64,000 nucleotides of DNA from a virus. Position numbers and translations under genes: made by a program. Location of the stretch: positions 2,307-66,306 of IMG/VR virus record IMGVR_UViG_3300027028_000045. One strand, written 5' to 3'. Below are positions 1 to 42,113 of the stretch, piece by piece; position 1 is the first letter of the stretch, and every line of letters begins with the position of its first letter. The notes beneath the pieces are model-generated. The model did no database searches and was not told the DNA's origin. It worked only from the letters and a program-made list of their open reading frames with translations.

Positions 1-261
1 TATTTTACCGATCCGACCAAAGCGCCGGGCTGGGCGCGTAAATTAGCCGAGAACCCTGACACTGACCCAACGCCGGTCGAGCGCTGGCGAGAAGTTTCGT
101 TCCATTCTACGGTTGATCGCGCTGTCTTGGACGTCATGAACCGACGGATTAAAACTTCGGACGCGGCTTCACTCGCCGAGATCGCGCAAATGGTACGGGA
201 ATTTCGCACTGAATTAGCGGCGGCGCTGACGATCGAGGGCGCTAATACTACGGACAAATAA
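1..261 (+). CDS. hypothetical phage protein, 5'-truncated by window edge
   Basis: Frame 1 is open from base 1 to TAA at 259-261 (YFTDPTKAPGW...NTTDK), followed by RBS GGAGG of the next gene. Confidence 0.6.
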   Translation, partial: YFTDPTKAPGWARKLAENPDTDPTPVERWREVSFHSTVDRAVLDVMNRRIKTSDAASLAEIAQMVREFRTELAAALTIEGANTTDK

Positions 262-284
262 AACGGGTAGGAGGCGGTTAAATC

Positions 285-479
285 GTGACTAAAACGAAAG
301 ATCAAGAAATCGCAGAATTACGACAGGCAATGGCGGCGCTTATTGCGGAGAATGAACGAATGGAGCGCCTAATGAAATTAATCGAATGGAAGTCGGATAT
401 AGTTGACGAAAATGTCGATACCGTTTCGATAATTCTACTATACGAAATTAACTCGCACGCAAGGGAGGCGTTAAAATGA
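285..479 (+). CDS. hypothetical phage protein
   Basis: ORF with GGAGG RBS; ATGA overlap with the next ORF. Confidence 0.7.
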   Translation: MTKTKDQEIAELRQAMAALIAENERMERLMKLIEWKSDIVDENVDTVSIILLYEINSHAREALK

Positions 480-21494: not shown

Positions 21495-23578
21495 AGCGAC
21501 ACATCGAGTTAAATAACGAAATTATGATTAAAAAAGACGGACGGTTTCAATTCGAGAAAGACGAAGAGGCCGTCCGTGCTTATTTTATAGACTACGTAAA
21601 TCAAAACACCGTATTTTTCCACGATTTAAAAGAAAAGCTCGACTATCTACGCGACAACGATTACTACGAAACCGATTTTCTAGACGCTTATACATTCGAG
21701 GAAATCAAGGCGGTCTATAAAACGACTTATGCCGCCAAGTTCCGATTCCCTTCGTTCATGAGCGCATTCAAATTCTACAACGACTACGCGCTGAAGACGA
21801 ACGACCGTAAGAAGATTCTCGAACGCTACGAAGATCGCATCGCTTGCTGTGCGTTGTACTTCGGAAAAGGTGACGGCGCCAAAGCGATCGAGTTTGCGAA
21901 ACTAATGATCCGCCAGGAATATCAGCCCGCGACGCCTACGTTTTTAAATGCCGGACGCAAACGAAGAGGCGAGATGGTATCGTGTTTTCTGCTCGAAGTT
22001 AACGATTCGCTGAACGATATTTCACGCGCAATCGACATTTCGATGCAGCTATCGAAGTCGGGCGGAGGCGTTTCGCTTAACCTCTCAAAGATTCGCGCAA
22101 AAGGTGAGTCGATTAAGGACGTTGCTGGGGCGACTAAAGGCGTAGTCGGCGTTATGAAGCTACTCGACAATGCGTTCAGATATGCGGATCAAATGGGCCA
22201 GCGGCAGGGCGCAGGTGCAGCGTATCTAAACGTATTCCACGCGGACATAAACGATTTCCTAGATACGAAGAAAATCTCGGCAGATGAAGACGTCCGAGTC
22301 AAAACGTTATCGATTGGCGTTGTGGTGCCCGACAAATTCATCGAACTAGCGCGAGAAGACCGACCGGCTTACGTTTTCTATCCGCATACGGTCTATAAGG
22401 CGTACGGCACGCATTTAGACGAAATGGATATCGGCGCAATGTACGATGAACTCGTGAATAATCCGGCGGTGCGGAAGGAACGTATTAACCCGCGCCAGCT
22501 ACTCGAAAAGATGGCCGTTCTGCGTTCAGAGTCGGGGTATCCGTACATGATGTTTCAAGACAACGTTAACCGAGAGCATGCGCTGAACCATATCAGCCGC
22601 GTTAAGTTCTCGAATCTCTGTTCGGAGGTGCTTCAGGCTTCGACCGTCTCGGAATACACCGACTATGGCGAACCGGACGATATCGGCTTAGATATTTCGT
22701 GCAACCTCGGCTCTCTTAATATCGCGAATGTAATGGCGGGTGGATCGATCGAAAACGCCGTCAAACTAGCCGTCGATGCGCTGACCGTAGTTTCGGAGTC
22801 TACGAATATCAAAAACGCGCCAGCCGTCGCAAAGGCTAACCGTGAGATGCGTTCTATCGGACTAGGTGCGATGAATTTACACGGCTATCTAGCGCAGAAT
22901 GGCGTCGCGTATGAATCGGAAGAAGCGCGGGACTTTGCTAACGTGTTTTTCGCAACGGTTAACTACTGGACGTTAGTGCGCTCGAATGAATTGGCGCAGG
23001 AAACGGGATCAACATTTGAAGGCTACGAGGGATCTAAGTATGCAAGCGGAGAGTATTTCGAGATTTATTTCGAAGGTGATTACCGACCAAAGACGGATAA
23101 AGTGCGGGCACTGTTTAAAGACATCGTAATCCCGACGCCGCTCGAATGGGAAGTCTTACGCGATAACGTAAATATGCACGGACTCTACCACGCCTATAGA
23201 CTTGCGATTGCGCCTAACGGATCTATTTCGTATGTGCAGTCGGCTACGGCTTCGGTCATGCCGATCATGGAGCGTATTGAGGAACGGACTTACGGAAACT
23301 CGAAGACGTACTATCCAATGCCGGGATTATCGCCGCAAAACTGGTTCTTCTATAAAGAAGCGTACGATATGGATATGTTTAAAGTGGTCGATATGATCGC
23401 AACGATTCAGCAGCACGTCGATCAAGGAATCAGCTTTACACTATTCCTGAAAGATACGATGACAACGCGTGATCTGAATCGGATTGACCTGTACGCGCAC
23501 CACAAAGGTATCAAGACGCTTTATTATGCGCGGACGAAGGATACGGGTCAGGAAGGTTGCTTATCATGCGCGGTGTAA
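21491..23578 (+). CDS. nrdE: class Ib ribonucleotide reductase alpha subunit
   Basis: PATPTFLNAG, VSCFLL, SNLCSE, APNGSIS, C-terminal CLSC; uninterrupted 695 aa. Confidence 0.97.
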   Translation: MKRHIELNNEIMIKKDGRFQFEKDEEAVRAYFIDYVNQNTVFFHDLKEKLDYLRDNDYYETDFLDAYTFEEIKAVYKTTYAAKFRFPSFMSAFKFYNDYALKTNDRKKILERYEDRIACCALYFGKGDGAKAIEFAKLMIRQEYQPATPTFLNAGRKRRGEMVSCFLLEVNDSLNDISRAIDISMQLSKSGGGVSLNLSKIRAKGESIKDVAGATKGVVGVMKLLDNAFRYADQMGQRQGAGAAYLNVFHADINDFLDTKKISADEDVRVKTLSIGVVVPDKFIELAREDRPAYVFYPHTVYKAYGTHLDEMDIGAMYDELVNNPAVRKERINPRQLLEKMAVLRSESGYPYMMFQDNVNREHALNHISRVKFSNLCSEVLQASTVSEYTDYGEPDDIGLDISCNLGSLNIANVMAGGSIENAVKLAVDALTVVSESTNIKNAPAVAKANREMRSIGLGAMNLHGYLAQNGVAYESEEARDFANVFFATVNYWTLVRSNELAQETGSTFEGYEGSKYASGEYFEIYFEGDYRPKTDKVRALFKDIVIPTPLEWEVLRDNVNMHGLYHAYRLAIAPNGSISYVQSATASVMPIMERIEERTYGNSKTYYPMPGLSPQNWFFYKEAYDMDMFKVVDMIATIQQHVDQGISFTLFLKDTMTTRDLNRIDLYAHHKGIKTLYYARTKDTGQEGCLSCAV

Positions 23579-36614: not shown

Positions 36615-36678
36615 ATTATACGATATCGTATAACGTATGTCAACGGATATTGCGAAATAATATTCGTTATCGTATAAT
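36615..36678. promoter_or_regulatory. divergent sigma-A promoters with palindromic operators
   Basis: Reverse TTGACA-17-TATAAT (36615-36643); forward TTGCGA-17-TATAAT (36650-36678); perfect 18-bp palindrome TTATACGATATCGTATAA (36616-36633) and a 15/18 copy (36660-36677). Confidence 0.8.
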
Positions 36679-37044: not shown

Positions 37045-38010
37045 CGTCAAAACCGCCTTGACGCTTAGAGCCACACGGGATACAGCCGTTTTTAGGCGTT
37101 AACGTTGTCTTATTCTTAAGGGAAAGACCTAGCGTCACTCCGTTCCGCAGATAACGCAATAGAATACATATATAGAAGGAAGGCGGCTTATTATTTGCGG
37201 ACGAGGCGGAGCCGAGGGCGCTGTACTTAAATACATACGGAAAGGACAACGTTAATATAGCGGACATATAAACGATGACTAATCGTTATGATTGCGTAGG
37301 TATACCCATAAAACATGCGGATATGTATCCTATATAATGAGGACGTAAATGAACGTAACATACTAACGGTAGGGCAACGTATCAGCAGACGATAGGCAGC
37401 GGTTGATTAGCCGAATAGGGTACCGTCATACAGGCGCTATGTAACGGTAGGCACAGGCGGTGTATATAATATAGTACGAAGGCGGACGGTAGGGTGACGG
37501 TGAGGGACAGGCGAAGACATCCGCAATCAAGCAAGCGCCTCTACCGGACGAGGCCTCCGAAAACTCAGGGGGTCAGAAGCCGAAGCCAATCCGTTTATGC
37601 AGGATCGTATACATGACGGCCGGCATAGGTAGCCCGCACGGATAGCGGCATGGCGGGGCTGGTGCGATGTATAAAGTTAATACGTTTCATTGCGCTGAAC
37701 TAACGGCGTCCAACCGCTGTGCATCAACGTTCGTCATCAATGCGAATGTAACAGAAAGTCTTTTTGTTACTTTCGTTATGCAATATTATGAATACGTTAT
37801 TCAATAATAATCGCGAAAAATAGACGAAGCCTCCCGCCCCCAAGCGCCCCAAACGAAAACGCGGAATCTAGTGAACAAAACTTGCGCACAATTTTTTAAA
37901 CTCGGGGTGTTAATCGTCTACCCGTACGTAGACATACGTCGTAGCTATCCGAAGTTTCTCGGAGCGGGTGGAGGGTTAATACGCTAATTAAACGTAGAGG
38001 AGACGTTCAA

Positions 38011-39302: not shown

Positions 39303-39374
39303 AGGGGCGCATGTTCCAAGGTGGCGATACGGTCTCCAAAACCGCGTGGGCAGGTTCGATTCCTGTCGCCTCTG
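39303..39374 (+). tRNA. tRNA-Trp (CCA)
   Basis: Acceptor AGGGGCG/CGCCTCT, anticodon arm CGGT-CTCCAAA-ACCG, T arm GCAGG-TTCGATT-CCTGT; weak D stem; CCA end not encoded. Confidence 0.85.
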
Positions 39375-39699: not shown

Positions 39700-40245
39700 C
39701 TAAATCGCGATGCTCTCATATGCGTCCGAAATCTCGTCGGCCGTGATACCGATATATTTTAGCGTATCTTTTTCGGATGAATGCCCGAGTATAGCCATGA
39801 TCCGATCGACTGCGATATTCATTTCGTACAGACGGTAGCCGAACGTTTTTCTAAGCGTATGAGTCCCGATGTTGCCGATCTTTTTAGCGATCTCGGCGCG
39901 CTCGGCGGCTTCGTTTAGAATGCGATAGGCTTGGACGCGACTGATTGGCTTGGCGCCCTTGCGGCTGGCAAATACGTAGTCTTCGTCAGCGCCTTCGAGT
40001 TCATTGACGAGCTTTTTGACGGATGCCGAGAACGTAATGACACGCGTCTTTCCGCGCTTGGCTTCGGTTATTTTAAGAGACGTTTGGCCGCGAAGATCGC
40101 CGACCTTAAGCGAAAGTAAATCGGAGATTCTCAGCCCAAAAGCCGTCCCTAATTGCAATAACAGACGGTCGCGCCCCGGTTTGAGGGCGTTTTTTAATTT
40201 ATTGAAATCGCGTTTACTTTTGATCGGGTTCACTTCGTTAGCCAT
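39700..40245 (-). CDS. minimal tyrosine recombinase (catalytic domain only, 181 aa)
   Basis: GLRISDLL (R), AKRGK (K), HTLRKTFG (HxxR), LGHSS (H), LKYIG (Y); ATG 40245 after GGAGTG. Confidence 0.92.
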   Translation of the reverse strand: MANEVNPIKSKRDFNKLKNALKPGRDRLLLQLGTAFGLRISDLLSLKVGDLRGQTSLKITEAKRGKTRVITFSASVKKLVNELEGADEDYVFASRKGAKPISRVQAYRILNEAAERAEIAKKIGNIGTHTLRKTFGYRLYEMNIAVDRIMAILGHSSEKDTLKYIGITADEISDAYESIAI

Positions 40246-40258
40246 ACGTTTCACTCCA

Positions 40259-40286
40259 ATGTACTTTAATTATTTTTAAGTTACAT
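40259..40286. other. dif-like tyrosine-recombinase site (11-6-11)
   Basis: ATGTACTTTAA-TTATTT-TTAAGTTACAT; arms are 9/11 complementary; lies between the -10 and the RBS of the recombinase. Confidence 0.6.
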
Positions 40287-40288
40287 TC

Positions 40289-40317
40289 ATTATACGATAA
40301 CGAATACGGTAAGTCAA
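40289..40317 (-). promoter_or_regulatory. sigma-A promoter of the recombinase carrying the XRE-type operator
   Basis: TTGACT-17-TATAAT; contains TATTCGTTATCGTATAAT identical to 36661-36678. Confidence 0.8.
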
Positions 40318-40346: not shown

Positions 40347-42113
40347 TTGGCGTATATAAATGGCAAGTTTTTAGAACGTGAAGAAAGACAGGCACGGATA
40401 GAGGCCGTCACGGAGCGGCTGAAGAAATTACGCGACATTATCAAAGCGGGAAAACACTCGGACTACCATGTCGATCTTATGCGGAAAGACCGCGACGAAC
40501 TCACCAAACTAAAACGGGTACACCGTGCCGAGGTCGATATGCTCTATTTCTTCTACGAATACTTTTCGGAAGCAAGAAACCCGGGAAATCCGGATAACCT
40601 CGTACCGACGACCGCGGTAGACATGGACGACGCGCCGAATTTCCACACCAAGTTATCGTCGATCCTCGACTCGGTATCTAACCGAAATAAAACGGCGCGT
40701 ATCGCATGGGCTGCGTCGCGGGGACACGCAAAGTCAGCGTATCTATCGAATGCCTATCCGGTGCGTGAAATCGTGTATAAAAAACGACGCATGATCTTGA
40801 TTATTTCGGAAACGAATGCCGGATCGATCAAGTTCATTAAATGGGTCGCGGGACAGCTTAAGTACAACCAAAAGCTACGCGAAGACTTTGGCGAGGTCCT
40901 ATACGAGCAGAAAACGCGCAACGAAAAGGATTCCGAAACGGCTTTTATAACAACGACCGGAATCAAAATGGAAGCGACGTCGCTCGGAACGCAGATTCGT
41001 GGTTTCCGTAATGGTTCGCAGCGACCGGATTTAGTTTTATTGGACGACTTAGAGTCGCTTGACTCGAACAATACGCCTGAACTGCGTCAGAAGGCAAAGG
41101 ATTGGCTTAACCAAGACCTTATGCCAGCGGGCGATCCTACGAAAACAGCTTTTATTTTCATGGGAACACTTGTGCATTTCGATAGTTTGCTGAACTACGT
41201 ACTGCAAGAACGTCGCGACTTCATTAAAAACAGCTTTCCGGCGATCATCAAGCCGCCGAAGCGAACCGACCTATGGGCGAAATTTGAACGTATCTACAAA
41301 GAATACGTACCAAGTGACGAAGAAGTCGAAGAAATGATGCAAGCAGAATCGGAAGACTCGATGTCCACGCCGAATGCGCGCGCAGCTATCCGTTTCTATG
41401 AAGAACATAAAGCGGAAATGGACGAAGGCGCCGAGGTTTTATGGCCGGGGCGTTTTCCTTTGCCTGCGCTGATGATCGAAAAGGTCAATATCGGCATAAA
41501 GGCGTTCAATACCGAATTTATGAATAATCCAATCGACGAGGATTCGCAGCTATTCAAGCCGGAATCCTTTTCGTATTGGACGGATTTTAAACTTAATCGT
41601 AAAGACTACGCCGTTTATATGGGGATAGATTTCGCAATGGGTAAAGAACGAGGAGACTTCTCGGCAATCGTGACAATCGCAAAACATAAAAAGACCGGAA
41701 AGATTTACGTCATTGACGCTTACGGAGAACGAATACATCCCGATAAGTTTCTGCGCAGGATTGTGGAGAAGGTTATCGAGTACCTACCCGATCGAATAGC
41801 GGCAGAGTCTCAAATGGCGCAAGAGTTCTTCATTGATACGCTGAAACGCGAGTTGGTAGTACAAGGATACCCGGCTGGATCGCGCGTCACAAAAATAAAT
41901 CAACGATCGCGGAAAGAACTCCGTATCGAAGCACTCATGCCGCAGATCGAAAAAGGTGAGATCGAATTTCACCGCAGTCAAACGCTCTTACTCGAGCAGT
42001 TTGAGCGGTACGGCTCGAATTGGCACGATGACCTACCGGATGCGTTAGAAATGGCGGTGAGTGTCAGCAAGCGAGCGAAAACGATGCTTCAGGAGAAGCC
42101 GAAGTATATGTAA
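40347..42113 (+). CDS. terL: terminase large subunit
   Basis: ASRGHAKS Walker A, LLDDLE Walker B, MGTL, MGIDFA and HDDLPDA nuclease motifs. Confidence 0.93.
   Translation: MAYINGKFLEREERQARIEAVTERLKKLRDIIKAGKHSDYHVDLMRKDRDELTKLKRVHRAEVDMLYFFYEYFSEARNPGNPDNLVPTTAVDMDDAPNFHTKLSSILDSVSNRNKTARIAWAASRGHAKSAYLSNAYPVREIVYKKRRMILIISETNAGSIKFIKWVAGQLKYNQKLREDFGEVLYEQKTRNEKDSETAFITTTGIKMEATSLGTQIRGFRNGSQRPDLVLLDDLESLDSNNTPELRQKAKDWLNQDLMPAGDPTKTAFIFMGTLVHFDSLLNYVLQERRDFIKNSFPAIIKPPKRTDLWAKFERIYKEYVPSDEEVEEMMQAESEDSMSTPNARAAIRFYEEHKAEMDEGAEVLWPGRFPLPALMIEKVNIGIKAFNTEFMNNPIDEDSQLFKPESFSYWTDFKLNRKDYAVYMGIDFAMGKERGDFSAIVTIAKHKKTGKIYVIDAYGERIHPDKFLRRIVEKVIEYLPDRIAAESQMAQEFFIDTLKRELVVQGYPAGSRVTKINQRSRKELRIEALMPQIEKGEIEFHRSQTLLLEQFERYGSNWHDDLPDALEMAVSVSKRAKTMLQEKPKYM

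Follow-up and report, generated by a model that had tools for sequence, protein, structure and literature searches.

A minimal tyrosine recombinase of a Bacillus prophage and its probable target sites at its own promoter and in a putative terminal-repeat region

The recombinase locus

We analysed a 64,000-nucleotide stretch of viral DNA, referred to here as the window (bases 2307-66306 of the 68,993-bp IMG/VR provirus IMGVR_UViG_3300027028_000045), which encodes P0001, a small tyrosine recombinase of 181 amino acids (aa). The gene is divergent from that of the large terminase subunit. Between its promoter and its ribosome binding site (RBS) lies a 28-bp palindrome that we call site 1. A second palindrome with related arms, site 2, is found 2.47 kb downstream of the gene, in a stretch of about 1.1 kb without credible open reading frames (ORFs). 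The features are compiled in Table 1.

Table 1. Features of the recombinase locus (window positions) and terminal repeats of related phages (positions in the deposited genomes)
Feature	Position	Strand	Remarks
P0001, gene of a catalytic-domain-only tyrosine recombinase, 181 aa	39700..40245	-	Stop codon included; ORF from ATG
RBS GGAGTG	40252..40257	-	Ends 6 nt before the ATG; read from the sequence
Site 1, 28-bp palindrome	40259..40286		11-6-11, between -10 and RBS; probable operator
Promoter of the P0001 gene, sigma-A type, TTGACT-17-TATAAT	40289..40317	-	11 of 12 consensus positions
Large terminase subunit gene	40347..42113	+	Divergent from the recombinase gene; Terminase_6C and T7-type RNaseH-like domains
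Site 2	37746..37772		ATGTAAC, 13 nt, GTTACTT; both arms fit the consensus; probable crossover site
Putative terminal-repeat region of the window phage	about 37530..37860		Homologous to the 309-bp repeat of phi18-2; placed by aligning the circularised ends of phi18-2 and Lietuvens
Lietuvens terminal repeat, 437 bp	site 2 at about 271-297		Annotated; the two record ends are identical
phi18-2 terminal repeat, 309 bp	site 2 at 206-232		Record ends are identical
268TH007 terminal repeat, 310 bp	site 2 at 207-233 and again 67959-67985		Deposited genome

The whole record is collinear with a circular permutation of Bacillus phage vB_BauS_KLEB27-1 (64,960 bp), with about 90–98% identity over most of its length. 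At the right prophage junction the homology to KLEB27-1 ends at G000 66602, which corresponds to KLEB27-1 position 23416. This point lies inside a core that resembles the 3' end of a tRNA, and unrelated host DNA with a terminator follows beyond it. The junction region (G000 66560-66640, just past the right end of the window; KLEB27-1 23380-23420) contains the core GGTTCGAGCCC and then the acceptor strand. A two-domain integrase of 348 aa, separate from P0001, is encoded at the start of the record, and on the phage map KLEB27-1 carries the junction core about 150 bp upstream of this integrase gene. The window DNA is that of an integrated temperate siphovirus, a Bacillus phage, and its phage attachment site (attP) adjoins the gene of the 348-aa integrase. 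A preliminary description of this DNA had offered an attP as one reading of the palindrome at site 1. We rejected it because the attP adjoins the large integrase and lies in the tRNA 3'-end-like core; sites 1 and 2 are both internal to the prophage and intact.

A recombinase reduced to its catalytic domain

Homologues of P0001 begin at the position equivalent to the annotated ATG, with MANEV, and an alternative GTG three codons upstream falls within the RBS. Residues 21-166 match the Pfam family Phage_integrase (PF00589) at 1.7e-25 (90.2 bits versus a cut-off of 27.1), and neither Pfam, nor a PDB sequence search, nor the structure model gave an N-terminal domain. None of the six catalytic residues (R39, K66, H129, R132, H155 and Y164) varies among 26 homologues with 52–75% identity to P0001. 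An AlphaFold2 model (mean pLDDT, the predicted local distance difference test, 89.7) has its best fold matches in XerA, IntI4, XerH and the catalytic domains of the HP1, P2 and lambda integrases, and also matches Cre. In the PDB sequence and fold searches the whole of P0001 aligns to the C-terminal catalytic domains of XerA, XerH, XerD, IntI4, the HP1, P2 and lambda integrases and Cre, so that it covers only residues ~109-275 of XerA and 126-286 of XerD. With the catalytic-domain fold and the R-K-H-R-H-Y set, P0001 belongs to the tyrosine recombinase superfamily. The preliminary description had called it a minimal enzyme of 181 aa with a complete catalytic set and no N-terminal domain, and the domain and homologue searches bear this out. 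P0001 is probably an active minimal tyrosine recombinase.

The protein belongs to a large family whose members vary little in length. It matches PHROG 216 ('integrase') at 1.5e-53; 3059 clusters score below 1e-5, those listed being mostly 176-196 aa long, and homologues occur in 246 phage records. P0001 stays under every NCBIfam cut-off for XerA, XerC, XerD, XerS and the FimB/FimE-type invertases. We found no phage paper that gives the phage members of the family a role, and the literature on KLEB27-1, phi18-2 and Lietuvens held nothing on the small recombinase gene.

The gene is divergent from the large terminase gene not only in the window but also in phi18-2, Lietuvens, PK2 and two further loci (L039, L045). 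Other arrangements exist. In L024 (1-999) and L033 (26-1009) the small recombinase gene is not beside a terminase gene; a gene for a full-length two-domain integrase is found upstream of it on the same strand, at a distance of ~180 bp and ~2 kb, respectively. A clade of homologues with ~40% identity is represented by the Bacillus cereus prophage phBC6A52, a Listeria phage and pneumophage IPP18 (L115:3022-4046, L117:2983-4040 and L116:2903-4034). In phBC6A52 and the Listeria phage the recombinase gene overlaps the stop codon of the gene before it; the annotation of the Listeria phage names this neighbour a sigma-type factor, and that of phBC6A52 lists it as hypothetical. In IPP18 a gap of ~190 bp separates the recombinase gene from a transcriptional-activator gene that precedes it. 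An endonuclease gene lies downstream of the small recombinase gene in all three, and in IPP18 the terminase genes come next. This order suggests that in the late-activator-linked clade the small recombinase is co-expressed with the late genes.

The palindrome in the promoter

Site 1 consists of two 11-nt arms, symmetric at 9 of 11 positions, around a 6-nt spacer, with 14 nt between its GTAAC cores. This is the build given in the preliminary description, which placed the palindrome between the -10 element and the RBS. A repeat-finding program reported it as 12-nt arms that are 83% complementary. Read in the orientation of the gene, the order is promoter, two bases, site 1, RBS and ATG. The arm beside the -10 element is good, and the arm on the RBS side is degenerate and departs from the family consensus at its two most conserved positions. 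The claim of the preliminary description that the right arm is identical to the Escherichia coli XerD arm at 9 of 11 positions holds against the dif sequence quoted in PMC3025954.

The position of the good arm is conserved. It starts exactly 2 nt after the -10 element in the window group, L018, the phi18-2 group, L027-L031, L039 and Lietuvens, and the order '-10, then GA(A/G), then TGTAAC' is retained throughout the terminase-linked clade. The half-site of L045 and PK2 is found between -35 and -10, and in other lineages (L050, L066) the -10 or the -35 element falls within a site whose gap is 15 nt. The site itself is less constant. Among 13 close relatives, three show a G-to-A substitution within the core, the right arm is altered in one and the spacer measures 5 nt in one; Lietuvens retains only a half-site, and L018 shows changes that keep the symmetry. 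Since the good arm starts 2 nt after the -10 element in all close relatives, we think that site 1 is rather probably an operator through which P0001 represses its own gene. Autorepression had been suggested before, and it fits this conserved position on the promoter.

A second negative input is likely. The 18-mer at 40289-40306, which comprises the spacer and the -10 element of the recombinase promoter, is identical to the -10 region (36661-36678) of the promoter of an XRE gene, whose product is encoded from 36708, and the two copies look like a small regulon under the XRE protein. Because the promoter has site 1 as well as this operator-like 18-mer in common with the XRE gene, the P0001 gene is probably under double negative control. 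In the region of the XRE promoter (window 36615-36678), a variant of the 18-mer that is a perfect palindrome overlaps the divergent promoter of a small toxin-like operon.

An RNA hairpin at site 1 was rejected, since the fold is weak: it reached -4.2 kcal/mol (z -0.84), and 0 kcal/mol when folded from 40282, a start that we chose inside the promoter-proximal arm.

A half-site motif across the family

We surveyed 19 viral and 80 species-level genomic loci that encode relatives of P0001 (the L numbers in this text) for the half-site pair TGTAAC-N13-15-GTTACA, allowing at most one mismatch. The species belong to the Bacillota (including Negativicutes) and the Melainabacteria (Gastranaerophilales). 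The motif lies within 300 bp of the recombinase gene in 33 of the 80 species. Its density near the gene is 0.89 per kb and thus ~27 times that in the rest of the loci (0.033 per kb), an excess that extends over three bacterial phyla; altogether there were 59 matches versus 5.6 in shuffled loci. The palindrome is therefore more than a chance feature, and the stretch 40259-40286 is very probably the binding site of P0001 itself.

From 67 distinct sites we derived the arm consensus AATGTAACAnAAT. The gap between the hexamers is most often 14 nt (37 sites), with 13 nt in 19 sites and 15 nt in 11, and the inner arm positions are variable yet symmetric. Read outward from the spacer, the family arm is TTnTGTTACAT. 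Because 10 of its 11 positions agree with the E. coli XerD arm (TTATGTTAAAT), the family sites can be described as palindromes of XerD-type half-sites. We consider it highly likely that P0001 and sites 1 and 2 represent a recombinase and its cognate target. The late-activator-linked clade (phBC6A52, IPP18, Listeria PLM34) and Geobacillus phage GR1 showed no convincing motif site, and for this reason the motif appears to be limited to a subfamily.

Inverting cassettes in distant relatives

Evidence that such sites recombine comes from distant relatives. In L046, L067, L069, L071, L072 and L076 the gene is flanked by two 28-bp sites that are exact reverse complements, spacer included, at about -50 to -100 and about +625 to +646 of the gene. 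L062 has two inverted copies 200 bp apart, both downstream of the gene. In the pairs L071 and L105, and L069 and L072, only the ~740-bp cassette of site, gene and site is homologous. Between L069 and L076 a common flank aligns in reverse and the cassette aligns forward, so the cassette must be inverted in one relative to the other. This alignment indicates that the sites recombine in these relatives.

The cassette members are not found in phages. Their neighbours (in L046, L067, L071 and L072) encode a chemoreceptor, a bactofilin-domain protein, a subtilase and a RhuM/Fic-type protein, and other non-phage relatives adjoin chemoreceptors (L040, L042) or ABC transporters (L048, L055). The ~740-bp unit of the Gastranaerophilales and Negativicutes is a minimal self-inverting cassette and possibly mobile.

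A second site in the region of the terminal repeat

Site 2 has one mismatch to ATGTAAC/GTTACAT and a 13-nt gap between its GTAAC and GTTAC cores. In a half-site scan of the whole 69-kb record, sites 1 and 2 alone stand out. The preliminary description had seen only one copy in the window. A search for the exact site 1 with up to three mismatches indeed gives no other copy, and site 2 surfaced only with the variable-gap half-site motif. It is the better conserved of the two, and the view of a single copy has to be given up. A third match at window 34541, with a 16-nt gap, was rated as chance, the mean in shuffled sequence being 1.

Together with a block of ~44 nt, site 2 is invariant in 12 close relatives, in which the adjoining DNA varies and the distance from site to gene ranges from 2.0 to 2.6 kb. 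The phi18-2 group, L027-L030, L024 and Lietuvens have a corresponding distal site whose gap is likewise 13 nt. When the non-coding regions of the window, phi18-2 and Lietuvens were aligned three ways, site 2 came out as the block with the highest conservation.

The deposited genomes of phi18-2, 268TH007 and Lietuvens place the homologous site 2 within a direct terminal repeat (Table 1). Its distance to the repeat ends differs between phages: one side measures 77 versus 140 bp, the other 205 versus 270 bp. Because site 2 is located within the terminal repeats of these relatives, it is very probable that a packaged genome of this type of phage contains two identical direct copies of it, and the circular or integrated form would carry one. 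In the PK2 record we saw no terminal repeat, and a perfect site lies 165 bp from the right end; this end-proximal site is suggestive only.

Sites 1 and 2 do not have the same spacer: its length (14 versus 13 nt between the cores) and its sequence are both different. Tyrosine recombinases need matching spacers, a rule that has been argued from Cre studies and proposed for RecV (PMC12282940), and by this rule the two sites should not be recombination partners of each other.

Further features of the region were noticed in passing. The DNA that separates site 2 from the recombinase gene contains, at window 39304-39372 (plus strand), a tRNA-like element whose anticodon loop has CCA (Trp). It is 88% identical to the 'tRNA-OTHER' of Bacillus phage Mater; ARAGORN made no call for it, and it stays under the Rfam thresholds (29 bits). 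Two non-coding stretches, window 37265-37355 and 37883-37939, have two to six times the depth of their flanks and show assembly breaks in contigs of runs X2-X4. They seem to be repeated elsewhere in the genome of the organism behind these runs.

Possible functions of the recombinase and its sites

We propose the following course of events. P0001 would be an active site-specific recombinase, derived from Xer and reduced to the catalytic domain, with a build like that of FimB/FimE and of RecV from Clostridioides difficile. Its target would be a palindrome of ~28 bp made up of two half-sites that resemble the XerD arm (AATGTAACAnAAT) and a short spacer. When bound at site 1, P0001 would cover the transcription start and thereby shut off its own gene. 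The injected linear genome would bring in two identical direct copies of site 2, one per terminal repeat, and recombination between them would produce a genome circle with a single copy of the repeat. This circle would be ready for replication, or for integration by the 348-aa integrase. The same reaction at site 2 could also reduce multimers to monomers. Both rest on the argument that deletion between repeats is the simplest role for a recombination-competent site that is present in both of them.

The comparisons establish the gene, its fold and catalytic residues, the two sites, their linkage to the gene throughout the family and the place of site 2 within the repeat of three relatives. From them we infer binding, autorepression and recombination by P0001, the repeat ends of the window phage and the biological role. 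The overall model, in which P0001 uses site 1 as operator and site 2 in the terminal repeat for a deletion in the manner of Cre and loxP, is in our estimate about as likely to be right as wrong. Circularisation or monomerisation at site 2, taken by itself, is a tentative proposal whose chances fall somewhat short of even. The broadest form of the idea is more tentative still, though possible: temperate siphoviruses of Bacillaceae with short terminal repeats (the KLEB27-1, phi18-2 and Lietuvens type) would own a dedicated, self-repressed circularisation module that is expressed from a promoter of host type and is independent of homologous recombination, and the same family and site would form self-inverting cassettes in Negativicutes and Melainabacteria.

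Several observations weigh against circularisation at site 2. The repeat of the window phage was placed from relatives that share about 70% DNA identity or less with it. Tripp and Halcyone, phages of Paenibacillus with terminal repeats, encode a related terminase and lack the small recombinase gene, so a dedicated circularisation enzyme is not needed for this lifestyle. The homologues with ~40% identity, for which no motif was found, sit after a late activator and before HNH and terminase genes, which hints at a packaging or late-phase role of this clade, and site 2 could be a packaging signal instead. With 11-bp arms, the 13-nt gap implies a spacer of 5 bp, which is short for a tyrosine recombinase. 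Finally, an active enzyme would break the concatemers that are required in packaging, so that a tight shut-off must be assumed.

Among the alternatives, the first places the crossover at site 1 itself, which would serve dimer resolution of a circular replicating phage, as a single Xer-type enzyme brings about at difSL or difH, with autorepression as a by-product. The 11-6-11 build with XerD-like arms is what such a site would look like, its 14-nt gap is the same as in the invertible cassettes L067, L071, L072 and L076, and gene and site lie side by side throughout the family. However, one arm is off consensus at the two most conserved positions, the site varies among the 13 close relatives and is down to a half-site in Lietuvens, and site 2 matches the motif better and is invariant. 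An integrating prophage also has scant need of plasmid-type dimer resolution. We regard this alternative as unlikely. The dimer resolution put forward in the preliminary description thus keeps some credit as a reaction, but its likelier crossover point is site 2, which in relatives lies in the direct terminal repeat.

We give the same low standing to a role in packaging or the late phase, in which P0001 would bind and perhaps nick site 2, aiding the terminase at concatemer junctions, or act as an architectural protein. Such a role would explain why many Firmicutes phages keep the family beside terminase or late-activator genes: in the six cases named above the recombinase gene and the large terminase gene are divergent, and in phBC6A52, IPP18 and the Listeria phage the recombinase gene comes directly after the late activator, ahead of the HNH and terminase genes. 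Site 2 is also the most conserved element of the repeat region, yet its distances to the repeat ends are not the same in different phages. The near-consensus sigma-A promoter would be expected of an early rather than a late gene, and the non-phage relatives are plain invertible cassettes. To our knowledge, no tyrosine recombinase has a packaging role.

Recombination between sites 1 and 2 would flip or excise a 2.5-kb segment with the recombinase gene and small plus-strand ORFs, and P0001 would then be the invertase or excisionase of a switch. P0001 is of FimB/FimE size, the 'tyrosine-type DNA invertase' models of NCBIfam match it at 1e-12, and distant relatives with inverted flanking sites are found in both orientations. 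The two sites of the window, though, differ in gap (14 versus 13 nt) and have no spacer sequence in common, and the gene has the same orientation relative to the terminase gene in the 13 close relatives, the phi18-2 group, L027-L030, Lietuvens and PK2. Contigs of four runs (X1-X4) showed no genome ends and no joint at either site, although contigs cannot show rare forms. A switch of this kind appears improbable.

That site 1 is not a recombinase site at all, but an AT-rich palindrome due to chance, an operator for some other regulator of the phage or a 5' RNA hairpin, is very improbable, since the half-site motif tracks the gene family across phyla, the changes in L018 keep the symmetry and the RNA fold is weak, even if a shuffle test on the 100-nt upstream region alone was weak (p about 0.1) and the promoter carries the operator-like 18-mer common with the XRE gene.

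The circularisation model, like the target motif on which it builds, bears on a widespread group of genes. Annotations of small 'second integrases' are found in Firmicutes phages by the hundreds and in prophages by the thousands. One large subfamily of them now has a concrete target, a palindrome of XerD-like half-sites, together with a clear regulatory layout, and one phage group obtains a candidate job for the enzyme. If the model is true, it explains how temperate phages with terminal repeats of 300-440 bp circularise. Should the 181-aa enzyme and a ~28-bp site suffice alone, they would be among the smallest self-contained site-specific recombination systems and would help in the study of DNA recognition by a lone catalytic domain. 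If the function proved to be tied to packaging instead, this would be a new role for a tyrosine recombinase.

Comparison with known systems

RecV of C. difficile is a tyrosine invertase that acts on cwpV, flgB and other switches, and it has no N-terminal DNA-binding domain; its proposed target comprises two arms of ~13 bp and a 6-bp spacer that is specific for each switch (PMC12282940). Compared by published features only, the RecV arm motif AWAGTWNCCNTTW and the AGTAAC/TGTAAC of the P0001 sites have an AGTWNC core in common. The distant relatives of P0001 are likewise invertases with inverted sites. RecV, however, serves many distant chromosomal switches, whereas P0001 is phage-borne, with two sites that differ in their spacers and without an evident invertible segment.

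The E. coli invertases FimB and FimE resemble P0001 in their size of ~200 aa, in having no separate core-binding domain and in being encoded beside their target. P0001 scores well below the cut-offs of the corresponding models (NF007371, 1.4e-12, 47.6 bits versus 222; NF007370, 2.2e-11, 43.8 bits versus 221). The window phage also differs in that it has no 9-bp inverted repeats around a promoter segment. FimB and FimE need IHF and Lrp. Two inverted sites with identical spacers, the hallmark of the FimB/FimE/RecV class, are absent from the window phage and present in L046, L062, L067, L069, L071, L072 and L076.

The likeness to Cre and loxP is one of proposed function, not of family. According to Sternberg and co-workers, Cre circularises the terminally redundant P1 DNA after injection and resolves plasmid dimers. 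Both phages have one such recombinase and a palindromic site with an asymmetric spacer near its gene, and in the relatives phi18-2, 268TH007 and Lietuvens site 2 lies in the terminal repeat, with a direct pair on the deposited linear genomes. On the other hand, Cre is a two-domain protein of 343 aa and loxP has a 13-8-13 build. P1 packages by the headful, so that only some particles contain two loxP sites, whereas in the window phage every particle would have two sites. P1 is a plasmid prophage, and the window phage integrates.

The Xer systems (XerD/dif, XerS/difSL, XerH/difH, XerA) are closest in sequence and fold, with XerA, XerD and XerH among the best matches of P0001, and the sites of XerH and XerA are palindromic too. 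Site 1 has the 11-6-11 build of a dif-type target, with both arms of the XerD type and no XerC-type arm. P0001 differs from the Xer proteins by its missing N-terminal domain and by its scores against their models (84 versus a cut-off of 220, 71 versus 330, 32 versus 267); with 71.3 bits versus 329.6 for XerD and 60.8 versus 335 for XerC, it falls outside the two-domain XerC/XerD type. The parallel to xerS/difSL that the preliminary description had drawn is apt in one respect, the gene beside its site. Beyond this sole likeness it is an analogy, as XerS has ~356 aa and P0001 reaches 31.6 bits against a cut-off of 267 (NF003462). The element is on a phage and not at a chromosome terminus, and we know of no FtsK link for the P0001 system.

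Phages have yielded comparable genes before. For p22 of phIS3501, a 'second integrase', the role was stated to be unclear (PMC3335513). Tyroviruses have terminal repeats and encode a recombinase with an adjacent 11-6-11 palindrome of unknown role; their gp50 differs from P0001 by a reported N-terminal phage-integrase domain and by its gene lying in the structural module (PMC9703825). In the literature that we found on phage 'second integrases' (PHROG 216, phIS3501 p22, Tyrovirus gp50) there was no defined site motif, no terminal-repeat site and no test of function. The enzyme class was thus already known, as was the principle of a phage recombinase beside a palindrome, from FimB/FimE, RecV, Cre and Tyrovirus gp50 (PMC9703825). 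As far as we found, what is new is the defined cognate motif, the layout of an operator and a site in the terminal repeat, the circularisation hypothesis and the self-inverting cassettes in other phyla.

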